From Planctomycetota bacterium (GTDB taxonomy: Bacteria; Planctomycetota; UBA1135), in assembly GCA_024275135.1 (NCBI GenBank), contig JAJRZS010000022.1, positions 12,516 through 76,515 on the forward strand: a stretch of DNA of 64,000 bases, read 5' to 3'. The stretch's first letter is position 1. Each line of letters starts with the position of its first letter. The position numbers and the translations under genes were made by a program. The notes beneath the pieces are model-generated. The model was given only the letters and a program-made list of their open reading frames with translations. It was not told where the DNA came from and ran no database searches. This document shows positions 181 to 40,654 of this stretch, in pieces.

Positions 181-2629
<2,449 letters not shown>

Positions 2630-2633
<4 letters not shown>

Positions 2634-3103
2634 CCGGCCAAAACTTCAGGGCGCTGATCGCAGGTTTGATACCACACAGCGGTGGCAAAAGCCAAGACTT
2701 CCACCGAACCAATATTGGAATTATTGCCGTTGGAGATGGTGCTGGTTTCAAAACGCAGATTCAAAATCAAATCCGCGTCCGCGCAGCTTTCCTTGAGTCG
2801 TAGCAAGGCCTCGCGACGGGCGCGATCGAGCAAACTAGAATAAGAGTGGATTTCTCCACCAAATAACTTTTTTAAACTAGCGGCAAACCGTTTGAAGTAG
2901 TCGACAGAGATCACCACCGAGCCTAGGGCCAATTCTGCATGCACAATTGTCTTGTCCGCAGGAAACATGCCGAAGGTCACCACCGGCTGAGTGGCAAAGC
3001 CAAGCTCCCGCCGCCGAATGCGCCGATAGTGCAATCGTTCCAGGAGGCTGCCGACGGACAAACCGAGGAATAGAAAGGCGAGGACGAAGTAAAGTTGAAT
3101 CAC
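2630..3103 (-). CDS. membrane-anchored YbjQ/UPF0145-family protein
   Basis: The GTG at 3101-3103 overlaps the TGA of the upstream ybjQ-like gene (GTGA coupling). A TM segment (IQLYFVLAFLFLGLSVGSLL) is followed by a YbjQ-like core (GGEIHSYSSLLDRARREALLRLKESCADADLILNLRFETS). The track ORF extends to 3148. Confidence 0.65.
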
Positions 3104-25202: not shown

Positions 25203-26435
25203 ATGAATGCCCGGACTCTTCACCTCCCCGGCTGCAAATCCGCTTCGCAGCGGGCCTTGGTGTTGGCAGCCTTGGCCAAGGGGAGGAGTCGGTTGCGTGG
25301 CTTGAATGCGGGGCGCGACAGTCAGGATTTGTGTGGTGCCCTTCAACACCTGGGCTGGCAGGTTTCCTTGGTGGAGGAGGCGGACCAGCTTGTTTGCCAA
25401 GTGGTGGGGAGTGACGGGCCACGCCAGGTGGAGGCGGAGGCAGTGGAGGTCGGGGAAGGCGGCTCGACGCTGCGGTTTCTGCTCCCGCTGTTGGCCGCCG
25501 CAAGCAATCGCATAGAGTTGCGCTGCGCGCCCGGCTTGCGTCGTCGTCCTCAGCAAACATTGGTAGAGGTTTTGCGCGGTTGGGGAGTTCCGCTGGAGCT
25601 TCGGCAGCAGGGGTTTTATTTGCAAAGCCCAGCGCCGCAACCGCATCCACCCACCTTGGTTTCTTGTCAACAAAGCAGCCAGTTCTGGAGTGGATTGCTG
25701 ATGGCGAGTGGTCGTTTCGAGCAAGATTGGCTGGAAGATCCCAAGGGCATTTCCTGTGGCTATTGGAGGATGACCATGGAATGGATGCGGCGCTTTCGAG
25801 GGGCCGATGTCTTGAGTAGGGAGGGTGGGGTATGGCATCAGCAAGCCGGATTTGGCCATGGGCAGGAGGTGCAAATCCCGTCGGACCCCTCGGCCGCGGT
25901 TTTTTTGGCCGTCGCCGCTTTTTTGTTGCAGACTCCTTTCCGCCTGCAAGCGCCTTGGTCGGAGTCGCATCCCGACGCACAGCTCTTGCGACATTTGGCA
26001 GAGCTTGGGGTTTTACAGTTAAAACCGGGCTGGTTGCATCCGACTCCATGCACACCGGCATCTTCTTTGTCCTTCGACTTGGGTGTTTATCCAGATAGTG
26101 GGCCGGCTTTGGCGGTGTTGGCCGCGCATTTGCCGCATGGTGCATCCTTTAGTCGCTGGCAGACTTTGCGTGGTAAAGAATCCAACCGCGTGGAGGGCAT
26201 GCAGCGCTTAGCCGAGCTTTGTGGGGCCCGTTGCTGGATAGAGCAAGGCCAGTTGTGGGTGCACAGAAGCACCTCAGCAGCACGGGAGCAAAGTTTCGAC
26301 CCTAAGGGGGATCATCGTTTGGCCATGGCCGCCGGCGTGGCCTCCTTGCTGTGCCCTAAGATAGAAGTCCTCCAGCCAGAATGCGTGGCCAAATCCTGGC
26401 CCAACTTTTGGCAGCAATTCGCTGCTTTACCATGA
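25203..26435 (+). CDS. aroA: 3-phosphoshikimate 1-carboxyvinyltransferase (EPSP synthase)
   Basis: LPGCKSASQRALVLAALAKG, GEGGSTLRFLLPLLAA, LRGKESNRVEGM and DHRLAMA blocks. The track ORF starts at 25137. Confidence 0.85.
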   Translation: MNARTLHLPGCKSASQRALVLAALAKGRSRLRGLNAGRDSQDLCGALQHLGWQVSLVEEADQLVCQVVGSDGPRQVEAEAVEVGEGGSTLRFLLPLLAAASNRIELRCAPGLRRRPQQTLVEVLRGWGVPLELRQQGFYLQSPAPQPHPPTLVSCQQSSQFWSGLLMASGRFEQDWLEDPKGISCGYWRMTMEWMRRFRGADVLSREGGVWHQQAGFGHGQEVQIPSDPSAAVFLAVAAFLLQTPFRLQAPWSESHPDAQLLRHLAELGVLQLKPGWLHPTPCTPASSLSFDLGVYPDSGPALAVLAAHLPHGASFSRWQTLRGKESNRVEGMQRLAELCGARCWIEQGQLWVHRSTSAAREQSFDPKGDHRLAMAAGVASLLCPKIEVLQPECVAKSWPNFWQQFAALP

Positions 26436-27610
26436 ATACATTTTGCCTAACTCGGTGTTGCCTTTTGCTCGGCTGCGCGCTCTTCAGTGGCTGCGCGACG
26501 GCGCCAGCGGAACCTGGTTCTGGGTCGGTGGAAAGCTGGTCGTGGCAAGTACCTTCGAGTTCGTGGCTCGATTTAGCCAAACAGGCCGAGGCGCGATTGC
26601 AATGGCAAGAAGCGGGGATTTGGCTGGATCGGTATGCCCGCCTACCGGAAGCCCAATTGGATGAAGAGTTTTGGTTTCATCGGGCCGCGGTAGCGGAACA
26701 AGCGGGCGATCTTTATCGTTCTGCCGAGGTGCGCGAACAGTTGTTGGCGAAGCATCCAGAAGATGTGTGGTTGCGTATTGATTTGGCCGATGATTACCAG
26801 CAATTGGGGCGTGGTGGCGAAGCGGTGCAACTGCTGCAAGTGGCTGTTGCCTACGATGACGATCGCCAGCACTTGGGTTTGGCCTTGGTGACTTTGTTGG
26901 AACAACAAGAACGTTGGTACGATGCGGCGGAACAGGCGGAGCGACTGGCTATGGAGAGTCGGGAGTCGGTGGCGCGACAATGGTGGGAGCGAGCGTCCGC
27001 TTTCTACGAAAAGGGAGGAGATTTAACCCGTGCCACCATTTGCATGGAACGCGCTTTGAAGGGTTGGGATTTGGGCGCGGAAGAAAAGCGGGTCTTGGAA
27101 CGCTTGCGGGCTTTTGAACTGGGTGAGCCGGAAAACGTGGCGGATGCATTACTTCTGTTGAGAAACCACCCTGATCCGGAAATGCGGCTGAAAGGTATTC
27201 GTTATTTAGCCCGAGATCGATTTCCCAACGATGTGGGGGTTATGGAGTTTGCCTTGCGTGACCAAGATCCACGCATTCTGGTGATTGCCTTGGAACAGAT
27301 TGCCCAACGGAGTGAGCGCGGACGTCAAGCCGCCGTTTTGCCTTTGCTGCAGCACGACGATGAACGCGTGGTGTTACGTGCTTTGCGTGCCTTGCGCCAG
27401 GTGGGGACCGAAACCGCTTTGGGAGCCGTCATCACTGCCATGGATCCCGACAACCGGGCACAATTCCGTGCAGCGCGAGATGCTGCCGAGGCCATCTCTG
27501 GGCATGCGATTGGCTTAGGCTTAGACCCTAGCTTGGAGGAGCGGCGGCAGATAAAGAAAGCTTGGGTGGACTGGTTCGCCGTGCAGGGAGAAGACAAACT
27601 AGGGGGATGA
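26432..27610 (+). CDS. TPR/HEAT-repeat lipoprotein
   Basis: Lipoprotein-type signal MNTFCLTRCCLLLGCALFSGC, TPR-like helices, then HEAT-like units (HPDPEMRLKGIRYLA, DQDPRILVIALEQI, DDERVVLRALRALRQVG). ATGA overlap with the aroA stop. Confidence 0.65.
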   Translation: MNTFCLTRCCLLLGCALFSGCATAPAEPGSGSVESWSWQVPSSSWLDLAKQAEARLQWQEAGIWLDRYARLPEAQLDEEFWFHRAAVAEQAGDLYRSAEVREQLLAKHPEDVWLRIDLADDYQQLGRGGEAVQLLQVAVAYDDDRQHLGLALVTLLEQQERWYDAAEQAERLAMESRESVARQWWERASAFYEKGGDLTRATICMERALKGWDLGAEEKRVLERLRAFELGEPENVADALLLLRNHPDPEMRLKGIRYLARDRFPNDVGVMEFALRDQDPRILVIALEQIAQRSERGRQAAVLPLLQHDDERVVLRALRALRQVGTETALGAVITAMDPDNRAQFRAARDAAEAISGHAIGLGLDPSLEERRQIKKAWVDWFAVQGEDKLGG

Positions 27611-28581
27611 AGATACTGGTTACAGGCGGTTGCGGCTACATCGGCTCAACGACGGCGCGGCTTCTGCAGCGGGCCGGTTATGAGGTTTGGGTTGCGGATG
27701 ATTTGTCCGAAGGGCATGCAGCGGCCTGGGATGGGCCCATGCTCCAAGTTCAGTTGCGCGAGGAAGGGCAAGTAGCCGCAATGGCCGCGCAGCATCGTTT
27801 TGATGGCATCGTTCATTTTGCTGCCCGTGCTTATATTGGCGAGAGCATGCAGCAGCCGTTGCGTTATTGGCGCTGCAACTTGCTGCCCTTGCTTCATTTG
27901 TGTGCTTGCTTCCGCGGAGTGCCTATCGTCTTTAGCTCTACCTGCGCTGTTTATGGAGAGCCGGAGGTGGAGCGCTTGGAAGAACACTTGCCCTTGCAGC
28001 CGGTGAATCCTTATGGTGCTTCGAAAATGGCGGCAGAACGCGTGTTAAGTGATCGCGCTCTTGCTGGCGCAGGCTCTTATGTGGCTTTGCGCTATTTCAA
28101 CGCCGCAGGTGCCGAGGACGATGGGCTGCATGGAGAAGACCATCGACCCGAGCCGCATATCCTTCCGCGCGCCATTCAAAACGCGCTTGGACAATTGGAG
28201 GAGCCTTTGCAGATTTATGGCACGGATTGGCCCACGGCTGACGGCACTTGCGTACGCGATTTTATTCACATCGAAGACCTGGCAGCAGCCCATCTGATGG
28301 CCTTGCAATACCTGTTGGAGCAAGGAGAGTCGGTGGCGCTGAACCTAGGAACTGGCCAGGGCCATTCTGTAATGGAGGTCATCCAAGCCGTCACCCGCTT
28401 GGTGGCCAAGGTGGAGTGGCAAGAAACAGCGCGTCGCCCGGGCGATCCAGCGCGTTTGGTTGCAGGCGTTGAAAAAGCGCGGCAGCTGCTGGGATGGACG
28501 GCGCAGCATTCCCAGCTGGAAAACATCATCACCACCGCTGCGCGCTGGCATCAACAATTTCCCGGAGGCTACCCAACATGA
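27607..28581 (+). CDS. galE: UDP-glucose 4-epimerase
   Basis: MKILVTGGCGYIGS Rossmann motif, YGASK catalytic YxxxK, RYFNAAGA, DGTCVRDFIHIEDLA. ATGA overlap with the upstream stop. Confidence 0.9.
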   Translation: MKILVTGGCGYIGSTTARLLQRAGYEVWVADDLSEGHAAAWDGPMLQVQLREEGQVAAMAAQHRFDGIVHFAARAYIGESMQQPLRYWRCNLLPLLHLCACFRGVPIVFSSTCAVYGEPEVERLEEHLPLQPVNPYGASKMAAERVLSDRALAGAGSYVALRYFNAAGAEDDGLHGEDHRPEPHILPRAIQNALGQLEEPLQIYGTDWPTADGTCVRDFIHIEDLAAAHLMALQYLLEQGESVALNLGTGQGHSVMEVIQAVTRLVAKVEWQETARRPGDPARLVAGVEKARQLLGWTAQHSQLENIITTAARWHQQFPGGYPT

Positions 28582-30122
28582 AATTTTCACTCCTCTTTGG
28601 TTTATGCTGCAGTACCACTTTGGCCTGGGCGCAGCAACCGGAGCTGGCCGATGTTTTGGATACCATCACTGCCGAAGATTGCATGGCCAACGTCGAGGTC
28701 CTGGCTTCCCCTTCCATGACTGGGCGAGCCACCTTGAGCTCAGGCTTTTTGCAGGCGGCAGAAATGGTGGAATCCCAACTCAAGGCTTTGGGTTATGAAC
28801 CGGCAAATGGGGATAGTTACCGCATTTCTTTTAGCTTGAACTGTGTTGTGGCAGGTGAGGAGACGCATTTTGTTACTGCTGGGATTGAACAGGCAAAGCC
28901 CTGGCAATTGGAAAAGGATTTCGTGCCAGTGATTGGCAGTCGGGAACGGGACGCTCGCGGTGAGGCCGTGTTTGTGGGGTATGCCATCGATGCGAAGAAG
29001 GAACATTGGGTAGATTTGAAAAAGAAAGATGTGCGTGGAAAGATTGTCTTTGCCTTTACTCGAGAACCACGAGCCGACGACATAAAGGCACGCGCCTTCG
29101 ATGGGGCCAAGGCGACTCGCTATTCGGAGGTGAAGATGAAAGCTGATGCTGTGTTCGCGGCCGGAGGCTTGGCTTTGGTTTTGGTGCCTGATCCAGGTCT
29201 GGTCGCGAGCGAGGAGCAGCCACTTCCGAGCATGGTTCCCTTTGTCGATGCGCGCGGTGCTGGGGCGGTGGGTTTGCAACGGCAGATGAATTTTCCGGAC
29301 ATGCCCATCCTGAGTGTATCGCGCGCGGTGGCGGGAACGATTTTTGATACTGATTTGCGTGCTTACCACAAAACCATCGATAAGAAGAAAAAGCCCAAGT
29401 TATTGCGCACACCGAAGGGAATGGAAATCCAATTGGGGGTGGAATGGGCGTCGGCCGACCGTGAGGCTTTCAACCTTGGTGCCTTGTTGAAGGGCAGTGA
29501 GGAGAATGGGGAGTATCTTGTGCTGGGAGCTCATTTGGATCATGTTGGATTTGATGTGTTCCGCGATCAAATGCGCTTAACGGTGCGGCCTGGTGCCGAC
29601 GACAATGCCAGCGGCAGCGGAGCCTTGTTGGAAGTTGCGCAGGCTTTAGCTGGCACCCAACCGCAAACCAATATCTTGTTTCTTTGGTTTGCTGGAGAAG
29701 AGCTTGGTTTGTTGGGGTCGGCCGCTTATTGCCGAGACCCCTTGTTTCCGCATGAAAAAACCATTGCCATGTTGAATATGGATATGGTTGGTCGAGGCGA
29801 TAAACGCAAGGCGAATGTGGGGGGGATGTGGAGTCGTCCCAACTGGGAAAAGTTTTTGAAAGAACAACACAAGCGTATCAAAAGCCCATTGCGCATGGAT
29901 TACAAGCAGGGACGCGATCTGTATGCACGTAGTGACCAATATAGTTTTCATCAAAAAGGGGTGGTTGGCCTGTTCTTTTTTGAAGCCGACCTCAACTCCA
30001 ATAAGGTCTATCACCAACCTGGAGATGTAGCCGACACCATGAACGGAGAAAAAATGGCGTTGATTGCGCGCTTGTTCACAGCTTGTGCCTGGGCGCTTGC
30101 TTACGAGGGGGTACGTCCTTGA
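28578..30122 (+). CDS. secreted M28-family aminopeptidase with PA domain
   Basis: Signal peptide MKFSLLFGLCCSTTLAWA, then LVLGAHLDHVG, GADDNASGSGALLE, FLWFAGEELGLLGS and MLNMDMVGRG, the M28 metal-ligand blocks. ATGA overlap with the galE stop. Confidence 0.8.
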   Translation: MKFSLLFGLCCSTTLAWAQQPELADVLDTITAEDCMANVEVLASPSMTGRATLSSGFLQAAEMVESQLKALGYEPANGDSYRISFSLNCVVAGEETHFVTAGIEQAKPWQLEKDFVPVIGSRERDARGEAVFVGYAIDAKKEHWVDLKKKDVRGKIVFAFTREPRADDIKARAFDGAKATRYSEVKMKADAVFAAGGLALVLVPDPGLVASEEQPLPSMVPFVDARGAGAVGLQRQMNFPDMPILSVSRAVAGTIFDTDLRAYHKTIDKKKKPKLLRTPKGMEIQLGVEWASADREAFNLGALLKGSEENGEYLVLGAHLDHVGFDVFRDQMRLTVRPGADDNASGSGALLEVAQALAGTQPQTNILFLWFAGEELGLLGSAAYCRDPLFPHEKTIAMLNMDMVGRGDKRKANVGGMWSRPNWEKFLKEQHKRIKSPLRMDYKQGRDLYARSDQYSFHQKGVVGLFFFEADLNSNKVYHQPGDVADTMNGEKMALIARLFTACAWALAYEGVRP

Positions 30123-31516
30123 TGCTAGGGGTTTGCGCGGCTTTTCTGTGTTTGACTTGGCAAGCTACCGCGCCGACGGCCTCGTCACCCTTGGACGCTA
30201 TCCTGCAACCAGTGGATGCGGAAGCCAATTTGGAGATTAGCGTGCATGTGGAGCTACTGGATGGCACCGTGCTCTATGATTTTCAGGGGCAAGATAAAAA
30301 ACGATTGGCCTCCAACAATAAGTTGTTTACCACGGCGGCCGCCTTGCTGGCACTAGGCCCCGAATACCACTGGCATACCCAGGTTTTTCTGGACGAGGAT
30401 GTGTTGCAGATTGTGGGGGGTGGAGATCCTTCTTTGCGTCGCTTAGGAGAACGCGATGCTGGTGCCGAATTTCTGGATGCTTTGGTTCAGCGTTTGCGTG
30501 CGCGAGGTGTGACGGAGTTGTCTCGCCTAGAGGTGGATTTTCACTATTTCTCTCCTCCGAGCCGTCATCCGCAGTGGCCACAAGACCAGTTACAACAAGT
30601 CTATTGCGCTCCGTTGAGCGCATTTTCGGTGGCTGGTGGGTGTGTCGAAGTCGTCCGCGAGAGCGGCAAGGTTTTTTTGCAACCGCTGGTTGGCGCTGGC
30701 ATGCGTTGGCATTTCTCAAAATCCAAGGGCAAACAGTTTTCTGCCTGGTGGGGTAGCCAAAGCCAACAATTGGTGGTGGCTGCCGGCCAGGATTCTCGCG
30801 ACCAAAAGCTGCGACTCGCGGTTCAGGATCCCTACCTTTTTTCCATGGCTTGGCTGCAAACGGGGCTTCAGCAGCGAGGGATTTCTGTTCAAAATGTAGA
30901 CTCCAGCCAACTCCATGAGCAAGTGGGACCGTTGTTGCTGAACTGGGAGTCGGTGTGGTCTTTGGCCGAGGTTTTGGTGGTGACGAACAAAAAGAGCGAT
31001 AATTTTTTGGCCGAAACTTTATTCCTTACTTTAGGTCAAGAACAGTTTGGGCAAGGAGATTTTGCCCATGGCGCCCAGGCTGTGAAACAAGTGCTGACGG
31101 AACAGTTTGCGCATACTTGGTCTTTTTCCCAAGCCGATGGCTCTGGCTTAGCCCGCTCCTCCCACACCGACTTGAACACGGCCACCGCACAAGAGCTTTG
31201 CTTGTTGTTGCGTGAAATGGCGGAGCGGCCCCAGGGTGCTTTGTTTTTCGATACCCTGCCCGTGGCTGGGGTGGAAGGACGCTTGGCTCAGCGTTTTACC
31301 GAGCCCATTTTTCAACCTCAGCGCGTGCATGCAAAAACCGGGTTCATTCGCGGCGCCAGTTCTCTGAGCGGCTATTTGCTGCTGCCGGATGGGCAAGTGG
31401 CCGTTTTTTCCTTTTTGGTGAACTTCGATCCAGCTAAAAACAAAAACACCAACAATCGACGTTTCAAGCGTTTGCAGGAAGACTTCTTGGCTGCACTTCT
31501 TCGCCTTTCTTCATGA
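30122..31516 (+). CDS. dacB: D-alanyl-D-alanine carboxypeptidase/endopeptidase (PBP4, peptidase S13)
   Basis: SxxK in ASNNKLFTTAAAL, GGGDPSL, DGSGLARS, HAKTGFIRGASSLSGY (KTG). TGATG overlap with the upstream stop. Confidence 0.8.
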   Translation: MLGVCAAFLCLTWQATAPTASSPLDAILQPVDAEANLEISVHVELLDGTVLYDFQGQDKKRLASNNKLFTTAAALLALGPEYHWHTQVFLDEDVLQIVGGGDPSLRRLGERDAGAEFLDALVQRLRARGVTELSRLEVDFHYFSPPSRHPQWPQDQLQQVYCAPLSAFSVAGGCVEVVRESGKVFLQPLVGAGMRWHFSKSKGKQFSAWWGSQSQQLVVAAGQDSRDQKLRLAVQDPYLFSMAWLQTGLQQRGISVQNVDSSQLHEQVGPLLLNWESVWSLAEVLVVTNKKSDNFLAETLFLTLGQEQFGQGDFAHGAQAVKQVLTEQFAHTWSFSQADGSGLARSSHTDLNTATAQELCLLLREMAERPQGALFFDTLPVAGVEGRLAQRFTEPIFQPQRVHAKTGFIRGASSLSGYLLLPDGQVAVFSFLVNFDPAKNKNTNNRRFKRLQEDFLAALLRLSS

Positions 31517-32367
31517 ATACCAATCCCCAACCCTGCCCCGAACTTGCTGTTGTCGAAACCATTGCCAAGGAAGCAGGCGAGATTTTGTTGCAGTGGAGTG
31601 GCAAACTTGCCGCGGAGCAAATTCAATCGAAAAGTGCGCAGCGAGATTTAGTGACCGCAGCAGATTTAGCAAGCGAAGCTTTTTTGGGCAAAGCCTTAGA
31701 AAAACATTTTCCGGGACAAGCTTTGTTGGCGGAGGAGGGCGTTGTGGATGGCAATCTGGATTTGCATGCCGAGACTTTGTGGTGCGTGGATCCACTAGAC
31801 GGCACGGTGAATTTCGTGCATCAATTGCCAATGTTTGCGGTTTCCATTGCGCGCTTGCGGCATGGTGAGCCCGAACTTGCGGTGGTCCATTTACCGCGAC
31901 TCGGGGAAACCTTTTCTGCCCGGCGCCAGGGCGGGGCCTATCTGAATGGGCAGGCGCTTCAGGTGTCGGCGGCAAAATCCACAGAAGATGCTTTGTTAGC
32001 CACAGGCTTTCCATACCGACGCCATTTATTGGCCGACAACAATCTCGAGAATTTTTGTCGTTTGTTTTTGCACCAACGGGGTATTCGACGTATGGGGTCG
32101 GCGGCTATTGATTTGGCCTATGTTGCCGCCGGGCGATTGGATGGTTTTTGGGAATTGCATTTGTCGCCCTGGGATGTCGCCGCTGGAGGCTTACTAGTGC
32201 AGGAAGCTGGAGGCGTGGTCGACACCATGCGATCGGGTGGAGATTGGTTGTTTGGGCGCAACTTGTTGGCGGGCTCTACCGCCCTGGTCGCTGATTTGCG
32301 CAGCCGTTTGCTGGCAGGACAGGGAGAGGATTTCCCCAATCTTGGTGATCGTTTGCAGTCGTCATGA
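31513..32367 (+). CDS. suhB: inositol monophosphatase family protein
   Basis: LAEEG, WCVDPLDGTVNFVH, and WDVAAGGLLVQEAGG motifs. ATGA overlap with the dacB stop. Confidence 0.85.
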   Translation: MNTNPQPCPELAVVETIAKEAGEILLQWSGKLAAEQIQSKSAQRDLVTAADLASEAFLGKALEKHFPGQALLAEEGVVDGNLDLHAETLWCVDPLDGTVNFVHQLPMFAVSIARLRHGEPELAVVHLPRLGETFSARRQGGAYLNGQALQVSAAKSTEDALLATGFPYRRHLLADNNLENFCRLFLHQRGIRRMGSAAIDLAYVAAGRLDGFWELHLSPWDVAAGGLLVQEAGGVVDTMRSGGDWLFGRNLLAGSTALVADLRSRLLAGQGEDFPNLGDRLQSS

Positions 32368-35300
32368 GCGCCAATTCGATTCGTTTGCGCGGCTTACGTG
32401 CTGGCAACTTGAAAAATTGGAATTGCGAGCTTGCACGAGGTGCGTGGACGGCAATTTATGGTGCCAGTGGGGCTGGCAAAAGTGCTTTGCTGTTTGGCAT
32501 CCTGGAGCCGACTTCGCGCCGCCGCTTCCAAATTTTACAAGACCCGCAATCGCTGCCTGGAAAAGAGGAAGATTGGCTGCAACCCCTGGCTGATGCGGTG
32601 GAGGGCTTGGATCCAGTCATTGCTTCTGCCGGAGAAATACCACGCCGGCGAAAAAAGCAAACCTTGGCTACTGTTCTCGATTTGTTGCCCTGGTTGGAGG
32701 CTGCGTGGAAACTTGGTGGACAATATCGTTGCCTGGGCTGTCAGCATGTTTGGCGCCCGTTGCAGGTGGAAGACCTTTTGCAGCAAAGCCAAGCTTGGCT
32801 GCGCCGGGAAGTGGTGTTGGTGCTGGGTGCTGTTGAGGGAGAAACTCAAGCCATGGTGGAGGCGGGGTGGACTCGCTATTTGGTGGACGGACAGCTGTTG
32901 CGCTTGGAGGAGGCTCCAGCGCGATTTCCAGAAAACAGTTGGCTGTTACTCGATCGGTTTCGTTGGCAACCGGAGCAAGAATCTAGGCTTGCGGATGCCC
33001 TTGCCCTCGCTTTGGGGCGGGAGCAAAGTTTGCGCCTCATGGTGGGCCAACGCGATCAGGAATTTTCTGCAGCAGGTTGTTGTCCTCAATGTGGGCAGTT
33101 GCACCAAAGTCATTGGCAGCAGGATTGGCATCGACAATTGGATTGGCAGGACCGGGTGCTGGCTGGAAAAAGTTGGCGTACTTGGTTGCATTCTCCATTG
33201 GAAACTTGGCTACAACTGGACGCTGGCGGGCGACATCCGCGAGCGCGCAAGCGTTTGCAGTTGTTGCAGGAAACTGGGCTTGGCCATTTGGCGGCGGCGC
33301 GCTCCCTTGGCACCTTATCTTTGGGTGAGGCGCGTCGCTTGGAATTGGTTTCCTGGATGGCGCAGGTGCGGCGGGGGCAAACAGTGATCCTCGATGAGCC
33401 GGGCATGGGCTTGCACGGGAAGGAACGCAGCCACATCGCCGAGTTGTTGCACCAATTGGTCGACCAAGGAAATACCGTGTTGACGGCGGACCCGGCGCGC
33501 GAGTTTCTAGAGTCGGCTCACCATTGGTTGAAGTTGGGGCCAGGTGGAGGAGCTGAGGGTGGACGGCTGGTAGGGCAAGGCACCCGCGCTGATTTGGAGG
33601 AGGAATCTTGGCAAGCGGATGCGGTGTCCGCCCATGGAGAAACGCCAACTTTGGAATTTCAGAACTTGCGAGAGCGGTTTTTGGACATTTCCCACTGCAC
33701 GGTACCCTTGCAGCAAGTCGTTGTTTTTTGTGGGGTTTCTGGAAGTGGCAAAACCACCTTACTTGAGCAGGAATTGCTGCCAAGGTTACGCCGCGAGGAA
33801 GGTGTTCAAGGTCCCATTCCTTCTGGCGGAGTGCATTCTTTGTTGCAGCGTTCCCTGCGCTGGTCTGCGATGAGTACGGTGGCAACTTTAGCCGGCGTTT
33901 GGCAAGAAATTCGGGCTGCCTTTGCTGCAAGCGAAGAGGCAAGGATGCGTGGCTTGGGAGCTGGCGACTTGGTTGCGCAAAAGGGACGTGGTGCTTGCCT
34001 TCCTTGTGGTGGCCGTGGGCAGGATGAGCATCATCTTCCCTGTGCAGAATGCTCTGGTCTTGGGCTGCGACCAGACTTGTTGGATTTGCGGTTGCGCAGT
34101 CGATCTTTGGCTTCTTGGTTGAGCACTCCGCTGAAGCAATTGGAAAAACGTCTACCCGCGCGCGGACGCCTTGCCAAAACTGTGAAGCACTTAATCGCCT
34201 TGGGCTTGGGCAATCGCTGCTTGGGGGAACGTGGACGCATTTTGTCTTTGGGTGAGCGCGGACGCATCGCCTTGGCGCGGGTGCTGTCGATGGCCAACCC
34301 CGCTTCTCCGAAGTTGTTTTTGCTTGACGAGCCATGTTTGGGGTTGCCGGTGCAAGAAGCGCGAAAGGTGATGCAGTTGCTGCGTAACCTTTGCGCCGAG
34401 GGGCATAGCTTTTGGGTAGTGGAACACCACGAATATTTTTTGCGTTCAGCAGATTGGATGTTGGAGTTAGGTCCTGGCGCCGGCCGGCTTGGTGGCCAAT
34501 TGGTGTTTGCTGGCACACCCCATGCGGTCGAGGAGGGCTCTACAGCAACCGGCATTTGGTTACGACAAAGGCGGCAAAAAACCAAGTTGCCCCCGCCGCC
34601 ACCGAAGCCCGCAGTCGCTTCCAGTCGCTGTGTGGATGCGGACAACCCTGGCCGTGGTCGCGCCTTGCTTCAGGCAGCTTTAGGGCGGGAGTTGGCCATG
34701 CGCAGCCCCTTGCTGAATGATCTTCTGGGAGCTGAAGAAGACATCGAGAGCAAAGAGGAGGAAGCTTGGATGCCATCGGCATGGCCGACTTTGCCCAAGC
34801 GGGGCGTGAGCTTGAGCCAAGTTTTGGGCTTGGAGCCCATTTTTCGCAACTATTGGCAAAGGTATGGCAAGCAAGTGTGCCCGTCCTGCGGAGGCGAAGG
34901 CCCTTGGTCGAGTTTTGAACAAGCAGCGGCGGCTTGTGGCGGGGAAGAAGTGGTCTTGACCACCCCACTGGCGGCGCAAATCTTGCAGAAAACGGAACAT
35001 CCGGCCTGGTTGTTGGCTGCTGGTTTTCGCCGCTTTGTGCGTGCAGGCCAATTGATTCGCTGGGGTGCCGAAGGTCCTACTCGATTGAGGGAGGGGGATT
35101 TGGTGTGGTTAGATCGTTGGAGTCCGGAAGACCCGGTTGGAGTGGGGGCTTGGCGCGACGTCGCCCATCATGCGCAGTTGTTGGGCCAAGGCGTGGTTCA
35201 AGCTTGGGATGTTTCTTTGCAAAACTTGTTATGGCAGTACCAACCGGATACTTGTCGTCAATGTGGCAAAAAAAGTTTGGGCTACGAACAGAGGTTGGGC

Positions 35301-36338
35301 CCCATGTCGACCATTATGCGCGAGCAAGCTAGCTTGGAAGAGGTTTGCCAGCTTTGCCTGCAACATCAACCGCAAAAGCAACTGCAGAATGCTTGCGCCT
35401 TGCTTGCTGGGAGTGGTTTGTTAGCCAAACCGACGGGCCATCGTTTTGCCGCCCTAACCGAATTGGAGCAGCGCTACGCACGCTGGGTGGGCTGGGTATT
35501 GCATCCCCTTCCCGAGGTGGTTTTGCTGGCGGATCAACCCCTGGCGGGTTTGCCCCAGGCCTTGGCCCTACGCTTGGGGAAGGCCATGTTGGATGGGCCT
35601 GGGGTGTTCCATTTCACCGATGCAGAAGCTTGGCTGGAGGAAAAACCCAATGCCATCGAATCGTTCCCGGTTCAACCAAAGGAGGCGAGCTTGGCTTTGG
35701 CTTTGGATTCCTGGTGCGTGCCCCAACGAGCGGCCATGGAGGCCAATTTGCGTGAAGCCTTGGGCTTAAAAGAGGGTTTGGCCTCCTACTACCAGCGCAG
35801 CGAACAAGCCAGGCTCCGCGGCTGGAAGATAGAAGAATTCTTCCCAGAAAAATCGAGCTTTGCCTGCCCTCATTGTCGTGGCAGAGGACGTCATTGGCCC
35901 CATCCAGAGCTAGCTTTGGACTGCCAATTCTGTCATGGCTCTGGCTGGACTGGCGCCTTAAGTCTTTTGGAGGAAGAGGGGTTACGGTGGATGGATTTGG
36001 GCCAGCAACGGCTTGGCCAGCTGCGTCAAGCCTTTGCCGAATACCCGCCTTTGGGAACGGTCTTTGCCTGGGCGGAAAAGCTGGGCTTGGGTGAATTCCT
36101 GCTTGACGCACCTTTGACTCAATTGCCCTTTGGAGTGCGAATGTTGGCACCCCTTGCTCAGGAGCTGGCCCTACACGAACGCGGAGAAGGGCGTCGTGTG
36201 GAGTTTCGGCTGGCTTTTGCCCTTGCTGGCTGGAATCGCTTGGAGGCTGCGCCTATTTCGTCTAGAATTGCAGGCTTCCCCTCTGCCCATTTGGGCCTTG
36301 AATGGAGGGAACATCATCCCCTGTTTGCTTCTCGGTGA
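32364..36338 (+). CDS. UvrA-like tandem ABC ATPase, 1324 aa, with a degenerate C-terminal UvrA-like extension
   Basis: N-terminus IRLRGLRAGNLKNWNCELARGAWTAIYGASGAGKSALLF parallels the UvrA start. Walker A at aa 33-40 and 457-464, signatures LSLGEARRL and LSLGERGRI, Walker B VILDEP and LFLLDEP. CxxC pairs at 123/126, 240/243, 545/548 and 560/563, with more in the tail. ATGA overlap with the suhB stop. Confidence 0.8.
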   Translation: MSANSIRLRGLRAGNLKNWNCELARGAWTAIYGASGAGKSALLFGILEPTSRRRFQILQDPQSLPGKEEDWLQPLADAVEGLDPVIASAGEIPRRRKKQTLATVLDLLPWLEAAWKLGGQYRCLGCQHVWRPLQVEDLLQQSQAWLRREVVLVLGAVEGETQAMVEAGWTRYLVDGQLLRLEEAPARFPENSWLLLDRFRWQPEQESRLADALALALGREQSLRLMVGQRDQEFSAAGCCPQCGQLHQSHWQQDWHRQLDWQDRVLAGKSWRTWLHSPLETWLQLDAGGRHPRARKRLQLLQETGLGHLAAARSLGTLSLGEARRLELVSWMAQVRRGQTVILDEPGMGLHGKERSHIAELLHQLVDQGNTVLTADPAREFLESAHHWLKLGPGGGAEGGRLVGQGTRADLEEESWQADAVSAHGETPTLEFQNLRERFLDISHCTVPLQQVVVFCGVSGSGKTTLLEQELLPRLRREEGVQGPIPSGGVHSLLQRSLRWSAMSTVATLAGVWQEIRAAFAASEEARMRGLGAGDLVAQKGRGACLPCGGRGQDEHHLPCAECSGLGLRPDLLDLRLRSRSLASWLSTPLKQLEKRLPARGRLAKTVKHLIALGLGNRCLGERGRILSLGERGRIALARVLSMANPASPKLFLLDEPCLGLPVQEARKVMQLLRNLCAEGHSFWVVEHHEYFLRSADWMLELGPGAGRLGGQLVFAGTPHAVEEGSTATGIWLRQRRQKTKLPPPPPKPAVASSRCVDADNPGRGRALLQAALGRELAMRSPLLNDLLGAEEDIESKEEEAWMPSAWPTLPKRGVSLSQVLGLEPIFRNYWQRYGKQVCPSCGGEGPWSSFEQAAAACGGEEVVLTTPLAAQILQKTEHPAWLLAAGFRRFVRAGQLIRWGAEGPTRLREGDLVWLDRWSPEDPVGVGAWRDVAHHAQLLGQGVVQAWDVSLQNLLWQYQPDTCRQCGKKSLGYEQRLGPMSTIMREQASLEEVCQLCLQHQPQKQLQNACALLAGSGLLAKPTGHRFAALTELEQRYARWVGWVLHPLPEVVLLADQPLAGLPQALALRLGKAMLDGPGVFHFTDAEAWLEEKPNAIESFPVQPKEASLALALDSWCVPQRAAMEANLREALGLKEGLASYYQRSEQARLRGWKIEEFFPEKSSFACPHCRGRGRHWPHPELALDCQFCHGSGWTGALSLLEEEGLRWMDLGQQRLGQLRQAFAEYPPLGTVFAWAEKLGLGEFLLDAPLTQLPFGVRMLAPLAQELALHERGEGRRVEFRLAFALAGWNRLEAAPISSRIAGFPSAHLGLEWREHHPLFASR

Positions 36339-38026
36339 CCATCGGCAACCAACCCTTAATCCTCCAAAGCGATATGACCATCGTGGTGGAGACGGCGCAT
36401 CCTGATTTCGTGGCCATGCGCAATGGCTTGTTGCCGTTCGCCGAATTGGTGAAATCCCCGGAATATTTGCATACCTACCGCATCACTCCGGTGTCGGTGT
36501 GGAACGCTGCTGCGATTGGCCTGGATGCCGAACAGGTGCTCAGCTTTTTGGCCGCCAATGCGCGCTATGGCGTGCCGAAGAATTTTGAGAGTGAAGTACG
36601 CACCTGGTTTCAGCGCTCAGAGGTTTTCCAGTTGCATGCGGAGGATGGAGACACGCTGCGCTTGGAAGCCAAGGAGCCGCAGGTTTTGCGAGATCTCTAC
36701 CATGATCCCGATTTGGCAAGTCTGTTATTTCAAATCGAAGAACAACAAGGCCGGGCTTGGTTGCGCAAAGCAAAGCGAGGCTTGGTTAAAGAGCGCTTGA
36801 TGAAGCTGGGGTATCCAGTTCAGGATTTGGCAGGCTATGTGGAAGGCTCAGCTTTAGCCATCCAATTGCGTTCGCAATTAGAAAGCGGACAAAGTTTCGG
36901 TTTACGGCCTTACCAGGAAGAAGCGGTGGAAAGTTTTCACCATCAGGGGCGTGCCGATGGTGGCAGTGGGGTTGTGGTGTTGCCTTGCGGTGCAGGCAAA
37001 ACCGTTGTCGGTTTGGCGGCCATGGCTGCGGTGGGGGCACACACCTTGATTCTCACCCCCAACACGGTGGCTTTAAGACAATGGCGTCGAGAGTTGTTGG
37101 AAAAAACCCATCTGCAACCGGAACAAATTGGCGAATACTCTGGGGAAGTCAAAGAGATACGGCCAGTTACGCTGACCACCTATCAAATCCTCACCTATCG
37201 TAAGGAAAAGGGCGGAGACTTCCTGCACTTTGATCTTTTCTCCAAGGGCGATTGGGGTCTTATCATCTATGACGAGGTGCATTTGTTGCCAGCACCGGTA
37301 TTTCGTGCTACCGCAGAGATTCAAGCGCGTCGCCGTCTTGGCCTGACCGCCACCTTGGTGCGGGAGGACGGCAAAGAAGACGAAGTCTTTTGCATGATTG
37401 GCCCCAAACGCTACGACGCACCGTGGAAAGATTTGGAGCGACGAGGGTTTATCGCCGCTGTTTCTTGCCTGGAAGTTCGTGTGCCAATGGAAGAAGATTT
37501 GCGATTGCAGTATTTGGCCGCGAAAAAACGGACTCAGTTCAGGCTGGCCAGTGAAAATCCCTCCAAAACTGATGCCTTGTTGGCCTTGTTGCAAAAGCAT
37601 GAAGGCGAGCGGATTTTAATCATTGGGCAATACCTGGACCAACTGCGTGCTTTGCAAACCGAACTCCAGGTGCCGTTAATCACCGGGCGCATGCCCAATC
37701 CGGATCGCGACCGCCTATACCAAGCCTTTCGCGATGGGGAAGAAACCGTCTTACTTGTCTCCAAAGTAGGCAACTTTGCCATCGATTTGCCGGACGCCAA
37801 CGTCGCCATCCAGATTTCTGGCACTTATGGCTCCCGCCAAGAAGAGGCACAAAGATTGGGGCGCATTCTGCGGCCAAAGTCGGATGGACGGGGCGCCACT
37901 TTTTACACCCTGGTCAGCGAAGGAACTGTCGACCAAGACTTCGCCGAGAAGAGGCAGCGTTTCTTGGCCGAACAGGGATATGCTTATCAGATTGTACCCG
38001 CCCATCAATTGATGCCTTCCAACTAA
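36335..38026 (+). CDS. xpb: XPB/Rad25 (ERCC3)-type SF2 DNA helicase
   Basis: XPB N-terminal domain (PLILQSDMTIVVE...HTYRITPVSVWNAAAIGLDAEQV). Motif I LPCGAGKT (36983-37003), motif II DEVH (37271-37282), XPB-specific RED motif in TLVREDGKEDE (37361-37369), and motif VI QEEAQRLGRILR. A GTG at 36335 overlaps the upstream TGA (GTGA). The track ATG is at 36302. An ATG at 36374 would truncate the conserved N-terminus. Confidence 0.85.
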   Translation: MTIGNQPLILQSDMTIVVETAHPDFVAMRNGLLPFAELVKSPEYLHTYRITPVSVWNAAAIGLDAEQVLSFLAANARYGVPKNFESEVRTWFQRSEVFQLHAEDGDTLRLEAKEPQVLRDLYHDPDLASLLFQIEEQQGRAWLRKAKRGLVKERLMKLGYPVQDLAGYVEGSALAIQLRSQLESGQSFGLRPYQEEAVESFHHQGRADGGSGVVVLPCGAGKTVVGLAAMAAVGAHTLILTPNTVALRQWRRELLEKTHLQPEQIGEYSGEVKEIRPVTLTTYQILTYRKEKGGDFLHFDLFSKGDWGLIIYDEVHLLPAPVFRATAEIQARRRLGLTATLVREDGKEDEVFCMIGPKRYDAPWKDLERRGFIAAVSCLEVRVPMEEDLRLQYLAAKKRTQFRLASENPSKTDALLALLQKHEGERILIIGQYLDQLRALQTELQVPLITGRMPNPDRDRLYQAFRDGEETVLLVSKVGNFAIDLPDANVAIQISGTYGSRQEEAQRLGRILRPKSDGRGATFYTLVSEGTVDQDFAEKRQRFLAEQGYAYQIVPAHQLMPSN

Positions 38027-38030
38027 AACG

Positions 38031-40025
38031 ATGACATCCATCAACCTTGCCCGCACTTTGGCGAAGCGTTCAGAAAGCGAACTTATCGATCTGCACGACC
38101 GCTGGGTCGGCGGCAATCCACCGGCGCGTCGGGCCGAATTGGTGCAAGCCCTGAAGGAGCGCATGACCGACCCCGTTGCTGTCGGCAATCTTTGTTTTGG
38201 CTTGTATGGCGCTTTGGCTCCGGTTTTCCGTATTTTGAGTCAGCAAACCGGGGTTGGCATGGGGCTCGAAGACTTGCGTCAGGCGGCCAGGAAAGAGGGG
38301 GTTGCACGCCGCAGTGTGCGTCCTGCCCTGGTGGAACTGGTGAGTACGGGCTTGGTGGCCCAAGTCACCCCACGACAGCCTCACCAAGAAGGTGTAGTTT
38401 GGGGCATTCCCAAAGAAATGGGAGATGTCTTGCCAACGGCAGGTGCACCCGAGTTGGTGCGCAGTAGCCCCTTATCTTTGCGCGGCTGGCTTACCAAGTA
38501 TTACCAACGCAAAATGCCGGCGGCCATGGGCGGCGAGGCAGTGCGGAAGATGTACAACCTGCTTGCTGGCGAACAAGCCATTTTGTCGCGTGTTGCCAGC
38601 TTGGAAGAAGACTTTTTGCAGTTAGTGGAAAGCTTGGCCATGCGCTGGGGAGGAATTTTGCCAGTTGGCGATTTCGACAAACTTGGAAGCCCCTTCAAGC
38701 TGGAAGAGGTCGTGGCCCTATTGGAGAAAAATTCCCTCGGCAGCATGTTGGAGCTGAATCTGGAGCATGCTGGTATCCGGCAAAACGGTCGGGTGCTATG
38801 CCTGTTTCAAGAAGTGGTCGTGGCCATCTTGAAAAATGGTTCTTTGCATGGCGATCCAGATGCCGAATCCATTGCTTCTATTGGCGTGGATTTCGTGTCC
38901 AACTTTTCGCGTTTTGCTTCTTTCGTCGAAGGGGATACTGTGCGCTTTACGGTGCGCGGAACCATTTATAAAAGCACTGGCAAGCGGATTGCCGAACAAT
39001 TATTGCCGAACCCTGGTCGAGAGTTTCGTCGTTTTGAAATTCTAGAACTGGAATACCGATTTTCTTTGGCTTGCGGCTTTATTGATCGTACCGGAGAACG
39101 CAGTTTTCGTCTCACCCCGGCGGGCCAGAAGTTTTTGGGCATGACCTTGTTGGAAAAGCAACGTCTGATGTTGGATTGGTTCGTCGAAGATCGAGAGCTG
39201 CCGGGTGATTTGCGACATCAATTGCGGTTGCGGCGCACCACCTTGCGCTACATCAAGCGTTTGCAGCCCGAAGTTTGGTACGACGCGATGTTCTTGCCTT
39301 TCGTTGCCCGCAATCACCACCTTGCCGATCTCACTTCTTCGGAGATTGCGCAAGAGCGCGCATCGTCTTTTCCTGTTCGCTCTTCTGCCGATTTGCAGAG
39401 CTTGGCTTGGAATCTATTTATCTGGGTACGCAAGTATTTGTACCTGCTCGGCATTATTGATATGGCCTATGACTCCGCTGGGCGCGCAGTGGCCATTCGC
39501 TTAACGCGGATGGGGGCGGAATTGCTGGACATGATTCCGGGTCGCGAAATTGAAGGCAGTGGTCACTTGGTGGTGAACCCGGATTTTGAAGTGGTTTTAT
39601 TCCCCGATCGTCGGTCCCATGATTTGGTGTATCGTTTGGACCGATTCTGCGACCGAGAATTTACCGACTCTCTCTACCATTACCGCATCACCCCATCTAG
39701 TTTGCATCGCGCCTTGGCCGAAGGCATGAGGTTGGATCAAATCTTCCAACTATTGCAAGACCGCAGCCGTACTCCGTTGCCCCAAAACGTGATGTATTCC
39801 TTGGAATCTTGGGCGCGCAAAGGTGGACTCATTACTTTCAGTGAAGATGGACGGTTGATATGCGAGCAAAAAGAAGTGTTGGATCGCATCACCCTGCACC
39901 CTGAATTGCGTCAAGTTGGGTTTGAACGGGTAGACGATGAAACGGTACAACTTCACGGACGCGTCAGTTCTCAAGATCTTGCCGGTTGGGTGCGCGATTA
40001 CGGCGCGAGTTTGCGCTCCGCCTAA
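38031..40025 (+). CDS. XPB-associated partner protein: winged-helix-like repeats plus a C-terminal XPB-NTD-like (Helicase_C_3-type) domain
   Basis: Starts 4 nt after the XPB stop. C-terminal aa 511-625 (HLVVNPDFEVVLFPD...LYHYRITPSSLHRALAEGMRLDQIFQLL...PLPQNVMYSLESW) parallels the XPB N-terminus. No nuclease or ATPase motif seen. Confidence 0.7.
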   Translation: MTSINLARTLAKRSESELIDLHDRWVGGNPPARRAELVQALKERMTDPVAVGNLCFGLYGALAPVFRILSQQTGVGMGLEDLRQAARKEGVARRSVRPALVELVSTGLVAQVTPRQPHQEGVVWGIPKEMGDVLPTAGAPELVRSSPLSLRGWLTKYYQRKMPAAMGGEAVRKMYNLLAGEQAILSRVASLEEDFLQLVESLAMRWGGILPVGDFDKLGSPFKLEEVVALLEKNSLGSMLELNLEHAGIRQNGRVLCLFQEVVVAILKNGSLHGDPDAESIASIGVDFVSNFSRFASFVEGDTVRFTVRGTIYKSTGKRIAEQLLPNPGREFRRFEILELEYRFSLACGFIDRTGERSFRLTPAGQKFLGMTLLEKQRLMLDWFVEDRELPGDLRHQLRLRRTTLRYIKRLQPEVWYDAMFLPFVARNHHLADLTSSEIAQERASSFPVRSSADLQSLAWNLFIWVRKYLYLLGIIDMAYDSAGRAVAIRLTRMGAELLDMIPGREIEGSGHLVVNPDFEVVLFPDRRSHDLVYRLDRFCDREFTDSLYHYRITPSSLHRALAEGMRLDQIFQLLQDRSRTPLPQNVMYSLESWARKGGLITFSEDGRLICEQKEVLDRITLHPELRQVGFERVDDETVQLHGRVSSQDLAGWVRDYGASLRSA

Positions 40026-40654
40026 TGAAAACCAAACTCCCACCCCGTGGCGTATGGGCTATTGGCTCGGATTTGGCAGGGGTGGCCGGGATGAAGTGGT
40101 GGGCGGAAACGGCCTCTCCCGCCCAAGCCATGAGTTTGCGTCGCCCCTGTGGCTCCATTCGTCGATGGATGCAGGGTTGTGAGCAGGTGCGCAAACAAAC
40201 ACCCTTTTTGGCGCTTCATGGGTATGCAGATTTTGCGCTTGCGGTAGGGGCAGACGCCATCATTGCTGGTGTGCGTACTTTGCCCTTGCCGATTTACCGC
40301 CGGGCCTTTCCCCAACTCATGCTGGGGGCCTCCACCCATAGCAGCGAAGAGTTGCAGCGAGCGAAGGCGGAGGGCGCCGACTTTGCTTTTTTTGGACCGG
40401 TTTGGAATACGCCAGAAAAGGAGGGGGTATTGACACCGCGCGGCTTGGACCAGCTTGCAGCTGCCTGTCGCCTGGGCCTTCCCATTTATGCATTGGGAGG
40501 AATCCAAACTGTGGAGCAAGCCCTCGCCTGCATCAAGGCTGGAGCTCATGGTGTGGCGGTCTTAAGGCTTGCGCAGCAGGCCAAGGCTTTGCAAGAGATG
40601 GTGTTGGCGCTCAGTGAGGTGGCCAATGCACCCGATGCGCCAGAGGGGTGTTGA
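40025..40654 (+). CDS. thiE: thiamine-phosphate synthase family protein (ThiE-like)
   Basis: C-terminal two thirds fit ThiE (GASTHSSEELQRAKAEGADFAFFGPVWNTPEK...LPIYALGGIQ...AGAHGVAVL). The N-terminal third is divergent. TAATG overlap with the upstream stop. Confidence 0.7.
   Translation: MKTKLPPRGVWAIGSDLAGVAGMKWWAETASPAQAMSLRRPCGSIRRWMQGCEQVRKQTPFLALHGYADFALAVGADAIIAGVRTLPLPIYRRAFPQLMLGASTHSSEELQRAKAEGADFAFFGPVWNTPEKEGVLTPRGLDQLAAACRLGLPIYALGGIQTVEQALACIKAGAHGVAVLRLAQQAKALQEMVLALSEVANAPDAPEGC

Follow-up and report, generated by a model that had tools for sequence, protein, structure and literature searches.

What function remains to a UvrA-like protein that carries almost 570 additional residues behind its second ABC domain is the question raised by a single gene of a Planctomycetota bacterium. 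The window, that is, the whole stretch of DNA analysed here, comprises 64,000 nt (GenBank assembly GCA_024275135.1, contig JAJRZS010000022.1, positions 12,516-76,515 of the forward strand), and coordinates are those of the window unless another contig is named; the source genome is a 2.6-Mb metagenome-assembled genome (MAG), 88% complete. The open reading frame in question (32364..36338, plus strand) encodes 1324 amino acids. A preliminary description of this DNA, made from the letters alone, had proposed that residues 756-1324 form a second UvrA unit that no longer binds ATP, and that such an intramolecular pseudo-dimer of one live and one dead half would be an unusual architecture for the family. 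We find a tandem UvrA whose first unit is intact and whose second is degenerate, and we consider below where this form came from and what it may do. In what follows, f1 denotes the GTDB family of the window genome, and f2 to f10 its sister families in the same order.

The C-terminal tail is a degenerate UvrA unit

The tail (34629..36338, plus strand; 569 residues and the stop codon) matches the N-terminal half of its own protein significantly and colinearly. BLASTP pairs N-half residues 96-204 with tail residues 57-167 (E 2e-4) and N-half residues 511-567 with tail residues 379-439 (E 4e-5). When an alignment of 23 homologues (A1) was split into an N-half and a tail profile, hhalign related the two with a probability of 99.2% (E 1e-19) over 524 colinear columns, placing tail residues 24-569 on N-half residues 53-695 with one large gap at N-half residues ~365-500. 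A second tail profile (A2), made from 30 genome-derived sequences, retrieved UvrA only from among the PDB sequences (3pih, E 2.9e-22). This match consists of three colinear blocks: tail 61-215 on canonical residues 98-259 (Zn1 and the UvrB-binding domain), tail 206-322 on 382-511 (signature domain I through to Walker B), and tail 385-560 on 685-865 (Zn3, signature domain II, Walker B, and H-loop).

The two units were modelled separately by AlphaFold2, and both gave confident predictions: the predicted local distance difference test score (pLDDT) is 89.3 for the tail (predicted template-modelling score 0.81) and 86.9 for the N half. Foldseek comparison of the tail model with the PDB returned 38 matches at E <= 0.001, all of them UvrA. 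The best two, 9gy7_A (E 2e-18) and 3uwx_A (TMq 0.71), are also the best two for the N-half model (9gy7_A, E 1.3e-58, TMq 0.74; 3uwx_A, TMq 0.76), and in both blocks each secondary-structure element of one model has its counterpart in the other. The tail model additionally matches the isolated UvrB-binding domain of the UvrA–TRCF core complex (4dfc_B, TMt 0.61). In single-sequence Pfam and NCBIfam scans the tail yields only weak zinc-ribbon, DnaJ, and anti-TRAP matches (E 0.01-0.2). That it might be an unrelated zinc finger of the DnaJ or anti-TRAP kind, with UvrA-like motifs arisen by chance, can be dismissed, since profile and structure searches return UvrA alone and do so colinearly along the whole tail; no unrelated domain emerged from the Pfam, NCBIfam, PDB-profile, or Foldseek searches. 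The proposal that the tail repeats the UvrA layout in degenerate form is thus borne out, and residues 756-1324 are established as a degenerate UvrA unit left over from the second half of a tandem UvrA.

The motifs listed in the preliminary description all lie where it placed them, and the alignments now give most of them a meaning. A poorly conserved linker that includes the PPPPP stretch (aa 742-746; 34569..34652, plus strand, as for all features of the gene) joins the units and has low pLDDT at the end of the N-half model. It is followed by residual helices (aa 764-788; 34653..34727) that match, by BLASTP, hhalign, and the modelled helices, the helix following the unit 2 Walker A of double UvrAs. 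The P-loop itself has been deleted: in BLASTP, GVSGSGKSTLAMD of P0025, an 1841-aa double UvrA (...GSGKSTLAMD...), aligns with ALG---RELAMR of the query. The absence of a Walker A from the tail holds throughout, as no G....GK[ST] occurs past residue 464 in the query, the 23 database homologues, or the 30 genome-derived tails. Next come the cysteines of Zn1' (C839, C842, C964, C967; 34878..35264), found in CPSCGGEG (839-846) and CRQCGKK (964-970), which flank a second UvrB-binding-domain fold aligning with residues 98-259 of 3pih.

Pseudo-signature I', LTELEQRYARWV (1031-1042), and pseudo-Walker B I', VVLLADQP (1052-1059), follow at 35454..35540 and align column by column with LSGGESQRIRLA...YVLDEP of 3pih as well as with the N half. 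Signature domain I' thus has LTELEQRYARWV where the canonical sequence is LSGGExQRIRLA, and the Walker B keeps its Asp while the catalytic Glu is replaced by Gln (D1057 is invariant, Q1058 nearly so). A short connector (35619..35747), mostly coil in the model and the least conserved part of the tail (36% mean identity), replaces ~130 aa of the ATP-binding cores, namely the end of nucleotide-binding domain (NBD) I' and the Walker A of NBD-II'. The double finger CPHCRGRGR...CQFCHGSG (1168-1194) forms Zn3' (C1168, C1171, C1187, C1190; 35865..35933), of spacing CxxC-15-CxxC with an invariant H1180 in the hairpin. Pseudo-signature II', LPFGVRMLAPLAQEL (1254-1268; 36123..36167), aligns with LSGGEAQRIKLASEL of 3pih and contains an invariant P1263; signature domain II' reads LPFGVRMLAPLA where the canonical sequence is LSGGEAQRIKLA. 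The Walker B strand of NBD-II' has no acidic residues, and a vestigial H-loop II', EHHP (36309..36320), aligns with VVEHHE of the N half (H1318 and P1319 invariant) five residues before the end of the protein. In sum, the tail retains Zn1, the UvrB-binding-domain fold, both signature domains, and Zn3; it has lost both Walker A cores, Zn2, and the insertion domain, its signatures have changed from LSGGE to LTxLE and LPxGV, and its Walker B motifs have changed from DEP to DQP or disappeared.

As to the cysteine motifs listed earlier, the eight cysteines of CPSCGGEG, CRQCGKK, and the double finger (C839, C842, C964, C967, C1168, C1171, C1187, and C1190) are invariant in every family member. CQLC (995-998) fares differently: C995 and C998 are peculiar to the query sequence and unconserved in the family, so this motif is not a zinc site.

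The search for other long UvrA-like proteins uncovered a conserved family of this length. Full-length homologues of 1315-1376 aa, always in one open frame, occur in ~39 species-level Planctomycetota MAGs, where they are annotated as 'ATP-binding cassette domain-containing protein', 'hypothetical protein', or 'excinuclease ABC subunit A'. A search of 1.84 billion protein representatives gave only ~11 clusters that align with the tail over its full length (350-750 bits), and the next tier (182 bits or less) is made up mostly of tandem UvrAs of 1500-2300 aa. Mean pairwise identity is 47% for the tail against 62% for the N half, and the 30 genome-derived tails share ~40 invariant columns, with the eight zinc ligands among them. 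For the closest pairs, the tail exceeds the N half in non-synonymous rate (dN) by a factor of 1.7-2, yet its dN stays far below the synonymous rate (dS). Estimates of ω lie at roughly 0.05-0.2, but dS is saturated (1.5 or higher, or undefined), and for this reason only the qualitative result, dN << dS, is used. These data demonstrate that the tail is kept under purifying selection.

The first unit and its ATP sites

Unit 1 (aa 1-735; 32364..34568) is a UvrA with two P-loops and a UvrB-binding-like domain. Residues 1-755 find their best PDB sequence matches in UvrA (3pih, E 1.2e-68). The alignment to 3pih skips canonical residues ~257-440, jumping from 256 to 441, which indicates that the unit keeps Zn1 and the UvrB-binding region but has neither the insertion domain nor Zn2; no conserved CxxC lies between Zn1 and Zn3 in either unit. 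The invariant cysteines of Zn1 (C123, C126, C240, C243; 32730..33092) surround the UvrB-binding-like domain, to which PF17760 gives a weak match at aa 160-218. Walker A I, GASGAGKS (aa 33-40; 32460..32483), is conserved across the family, and Walker A II reads GVSGSGKT (aa 457-464; 33732..33755). Two DEP motifs and H-loop II are also present, while both signatures read LSLGE.

At the place of the NBD-I H-loop, where the canonical protein has VEHD, alignment to 3pih puts A375-D376-P377 (33486..33494). The histidine is replaced by an invariant Pro377, and the family consensus is GNTVLTADPAREF, against GNTV.VVEHD in every sister unit; consequently, the full canonical set of catalytic motifs is found only at the Walker A II site. 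Zn3 (C545, C548, C560, C563; 33996..34052) has a shortened hairpin, CxxC-11-CxxC, eight residues shorter than in any sister unit. The spacing of 11 in unit 1 and 15 in unit 2 compares with 19 in 38 of the 38 sister-family units checked, although the four cysteines are invariant in both units. The earlier picture of one live and one dead half needs the qualification that the live half is itself derived.

Relative to class I UvrA (TIGR00630/NF001503; structures 2R6F, 3PIH, 3UWX, 9GY7), both units share the fold and the order of elements (Zn1 with the UvrB-binding domain, signature I, and Zn3 within signature II), and unit 1 shares the two P-loops, the Walker B motifs, and H-loop II. The query differs in having two units per chain, of which the second has no ATP sites and neither has an insertion domain or Zn2, in its shortened Zn3 hairpins, in the loss of the H-loop I histidine, and in the LSLGE reading of both unit 1 signatures. 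Its scores fall far below the curated cutoffs: 288.6 bits against TIGR00630 (E 1e-85; cutoff 729.8) and 280.8 bits against NF001503 (cutoff 1147). Being below cutoff, without insertion domain and Zn2, and altered in Zn3, the protein does not qualify as a class I UvrA equivalog.

Tandem UvrAs at the same locus of sister families

Immediately downstream of uvrA lie an XPB/ERCC3-type helicase and a partner gene, assigned by Pfam (36302..40025, plus strand). The XPB/ERCC3/RAD25-type helicase (36302-38026, plus strand; 574 aa) combines an N-terminal Helicase_C_3 domain with ERCC3_RAD25_C, and the partner protein (38031-40025, plus strand; 664 aa) carries the same Helicase_C_3 domain at its C-terminus. 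The order M28 peptidase – S13 peptidase – inositol monophosphatase (IMPase) – UvrA – XPB – partner – thiE is kept in all f1 loci and is met again in sister families, where a double UvrA fills the UvrA slot; the IMPase–UvrA–XPB–partner order occurs in most sister families, including genomes that have a fully canonical double UvrA in that position. In one genome (G039, locus L063) the IMPase–UvrA part is found without XPB. In the window, the gene belongs to a co-directional run (25203-40654, plus strand) of HEAT-repeat protein, epimerase, M28, S13, IMPase, UvrA, XPB, partner, and thiE genes, which are functionally unrelated and whose ends overlap or nearly abut. The entire run keeps its synteny throughout the family, so that proximity by itself says little in favour of a functional link.

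The UvrA at this locus takes a different form from one family to the next. The double UvrAs of sister families have frames of ~1900-2200 aa with two full units, each scoring ~1000-1250 bits against TIGR00630. In f6, f9, and f10 the locus encodes a fully canonical double UvrA with four Walker A motifs, which is the only UvrA in the genome. In f8, unit 1 is without the insertion domain, and in f5 both units are without it while four Walker A motifs remain; both of these families have a canonical double UvrA elsewhere. The f2 protein (1581-1634 aa; for example L058 on G025:C6 and L059 on G034:C5, both at the XPB locus) has three Walker A motifs and a unit 2 without signature or Walker B, and is accompanied by canonical single UvrAs elsewhere. 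The f1 protein, finally, has two Walker A motifs and no other UvrA beside it. The three-P-loop form of f2 is the closest intermediate to the query and looks like a stage on the way to the f1 form.

The BLASTP alignment of the query with the 1841-aa double UvrA is colinear, beginning in unit 1 and passing the junction into unit 2. With the Planctomycetota doubles at the IMPase–XPB locus the query thus shares its genomic slot, its neighbour order, and a colinear alignment across the junction, and with tandem double UvrAs in general (~1800-2200 aa; NF001885/PRK00635) it shares head-to-tail units joined by a short linker. These observations identify the query gene as the positional counterpart of the four-P-loop double UvrA of the sister families, and the query protein as a descendant of the tandem UvrA of its order. 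It is not itself a double UvrA of the NF001885 type, as it has two P-loops rather than four: the doubles have four Walker A motifs (with full-length units in f6, f9, and f10), whereas unit 2 of the query has 569 aa and no P-loop, and against NF001885 the query reaches 215.7 bits (cutoff 3054) and matches only the first half of the model. The suggestion that the architecture is unusual therefore needs qualification. Tandem UvrAs as such are nothing out of the ordinary in this order, where sister families have four-P-loop doubles at this same locus; what is unusual is the half-dead state and the status of this protein as sole UvrA.

Partial degeneration is no rarity among tandem UvrAs. The tandem-length (>1450 aa) UvrA representatives listed (P0036-P0174) have four Walker A motifs in 81 cases, three in 17, and two in one. 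The three-motif proteins, 17 of the 102 listed, show at least three patterns (the second, third, or fourth motif lost), although some may be fragments or have relaxed motifs. With only three strict Walker A motifs in these 17, loss of a single ATP site seems to be recurrent in tandem UvrAs. Several otherwise canonical doubles of f7, f9, and f10 (L063, L064, L068-L071) are without the first CxxC of Zn1 in unit 2 and have it in unit 1, so that asymmetry between the units is older than the degeneration in f1. At a further locus, L074 (G034:C81:81789-87978), two single UvrA genes adjoin each other, and the tree groups them with unit 1 and unit 2, respectively, of the f5 and f8 doubles found elsewhere in those genomes; the pair is either a split double UvrA or an unfused precursor state.

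A proposed asymmetric UvrA in nucleotide excision repair

UvrA loads UvrB onto damaged DNA by way of its UvrB-binding domain (PMC7835731). The window genome encodes UvrB, UvrC, and Mfd, and UvrB was found in all 41 of the f1 genomes sampled (~900 bits). The query protein is present in 44 of 49 f1 genomes, representing 22 genera, and no credible class I UvrA was found in these 49, in which only two sequences scored like a canonical UvrA. One of them (G045:C81) lies on a 2.8-kb contig of 71% GC, compared with ~55% in the family, and is probably a binning contaminant. The other (G001:C94, positions 610-3042; L077) is an 844-aa, class II-like protein that lacks the UvrB-binding domain (canonical residues 116-262); its genome is of the same genus as the window genome, and the 12-kb contig that carries it has a GC content typical of the family. 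In the window genome uvrB and uvrC are adjacent (contig C7:534-4223), 48 nt apart, with the uvrB start 534 nt from the contig end. As UvrB, UvrC, and Mfd are kept and no other credible UvrA was found, the most economical reading is that the query protein is the UvrA of its clade, apparently the sole one in a clade where these three partners are retained.

The explanation that we favour, with a probability of about 0.6, is that this is a single-chain asymmetric UvrA, derived from a tandem ancestor, whose ATP-dead second unit is retained while the protein presumably still senses damage and loads UvrB in nucleotide excision repair. The protein would act as a built-in asymmetric 'heterodimer'. Unit 1 would supply ATP binding and hydrolysis and, with them, ATP-driven switching; turnover would probably take place mainly at its distal site, because the H-loop histidine of the NBD-I (proximal) site is replaced by proline. 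Unit 2 would contribute a second signature II/Zn3 surface for DNA contact and a second docking domain for UvrB and Mfd, which is the role of the partner protomer in the UvrA dimer (UvrA2). A more specific version can be put forward tentatively. It holds that a family-level clade of marine Planctomycetota runs UvrABC with a monomeric UvrA that has one ATP-binding unit, probably one fully catalytic site of four, and no insertion domains, its ATP-dead unit being an obligatory pseudo-protomer that docks a second UvrB and completes the DNA groove.

Several results weigh against the asymmetric single-chain UvrA. The maximum-likelihood tree of units recovers the N halves of f1 as one clade, but on a very long stem (1.87 changes per site) whose placement is unsupported (support value 1). 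Whole-unit scores of the tail profile amount to 30-85 bits for both units of double UvrAs, with the N halves of the family itself in the same range; such scores do not discriminate, and they neither support a recent internal duplication nor prove unit-2 ancestry. As the tree does not place the f1 N halves, orthology rests on synteny; as the whole-unit scores do not tell unit 1 from unit 2, descent of the tail from the second tandem unit rests on position, synteny, and colinearity. The Zn3/signature II block by itself favoured unit 2 in five of the six double UvrAs scored, and the best tail-profile stretch fell in unit 2 in roughly 29 of the 41 top tandem hits (a hand count). A hidden Markov model (HMM) made locally from canonical UvrB-binding domains of the same order gives 25-46 bits for unit 1 and 5-30 for unit 2, against 60-148 for sister units. 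With both UvrB-binding-like domains so divergent, contact with UvrB is not assured, least of all for the tail. Features that matter to canonical UvrA in recognising damage are also missing or reduced in both units, the insertion domain being absent and the Zn3 hairpin reduced to 11 and 15 residues from 19. Lastly, the f1 genomes are MAGs of 69-92% completeness, and hence the lack of a canonical UvrA holds statistically, not absolutely.

A different arrangement, which we consider unlikely, is that the protein forms a homodimer through its intact first units and that the tail is an appended adaptor, for example one that docks UvrB, Mfd, or XPB and its partner. UvrB and Mfd both dock on the UvrB-binding domain of UvrA (PDB 3UWX, 4DFC), and the tail keeps the fold that binds both, as seen in its match to 4dfc_B, in a genome where Mfd is present. 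Unit 1 alone has everything that a protomer needs for two composite ATP sites, as well as the better-preserved UvrB-binding domain, and XPB and its partner, immediately downstream, may be co-transcribed with it. Yet the tail goes well beyond a docking domain, for it retains signature domains I and II, Zn3, and traces of the Walker B and H-loop strands in their original order, which fits a protomer-like scaffold better than an adaptor. The adjacency to XPB, moreover, is ancestral in the order and, being shared by loci with fully canonical double UvrAs, is no peculiarity of the degenerate form.

It is improbable that the protein stands outside UvrABC altogether, as a specialised paralogue of the class II kind, perhaps working with XPB, while UvrB and UvrC act without a classical UvrA. 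Such a role would agree with the situation in f2, f5, and f8, where the divergent copy lies at the XPB locus and a canonical UvrA is encoded elsewhere, and with the long stem branch, which points to changed constraint, the scores far below the curated UvrA cutoffs, the lost insertion domains, and the shortened Zn3 hairpins. However, the universal and highly conserved UvrB would then have no other UvrA to load it, and in f6, f9, and f10 the UvrA at this locus is the sole one and a fully canonical double. The comparison with class II itself is also unfavourable. Class II UvrAs (UvrA2 of D. radiodurans, 2VF7; Ecm16, 7SH1; DrrC) are likewise divergent members of the UvrA family with domain losses, but they are single units with both ATP sites and without the UvrB-binding domain, whereas the query has lost the insertion domain and, according to its sequence and predicted models, keeps the UvrB-binding fold twice, by which it is not a class II UvrA.

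That the tail is a functionless, decaying relic of unit 2 is hardly credible: for all its faster non-synonymous evolution and the loss of every catalytic motif, its frame has stayed open and of the same length across ~39 species from 22 genera, with eight of eight zinc-ligand cysteines invariant, dN far below dS, and a confidently predicted fold.

UvrA has been described as a symmetric dimer with four ATP sites whose division of labour is debated, with damage discrimination placed at the distal site and the handling of UvrB and DNA at the proximal site (PMC7835731). Nothing relevant came from our search of the open literature for natural tandem, duplicated, or half-degenerate UvrAs, for classes of UvrA other than I and II, or for UvrA and XPB together in Planctomycetes. 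The query is a natural variant in which half of the machine is an ATP-free scaffold and the other half is without one catalytic histidine. Across families, a graded series is present at a single locus, from four P-loops through loss of insertion domains to three P-loops and then two, and this series offers ready-made constructs for asking which sites and modules serve lesion search, UvrB loading, and release.

Heterodimeric ABC exporters and CFTR have one non-catalytic site, and MSH2–MSH6 stands in a comparable relation to the bacterial MutS homodimer. In these systems a symmetric ATPase became obligately asymmetric after duplication or fusion, with one half serving as a scaffold. The likeness is one of analogy only, as they are not homologous to the query in the relevant sense, and the query has deleted entire ATP-binding cores rather than catalytic residues alone. 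The query is a clear example, too, of the way in which fusion of two protomers relaxes symmetry and permits sub-functionalisation, as in the passage from MutS to the MSH heterodimers and in the ABC exporters with a degenerate site. If the asymmetric single-chain reading is true, this family of Planctomycetota would show, by a case found in nature, that reduction of the symmetric four-site UvrA2 machine to an asymmetric one is possible.

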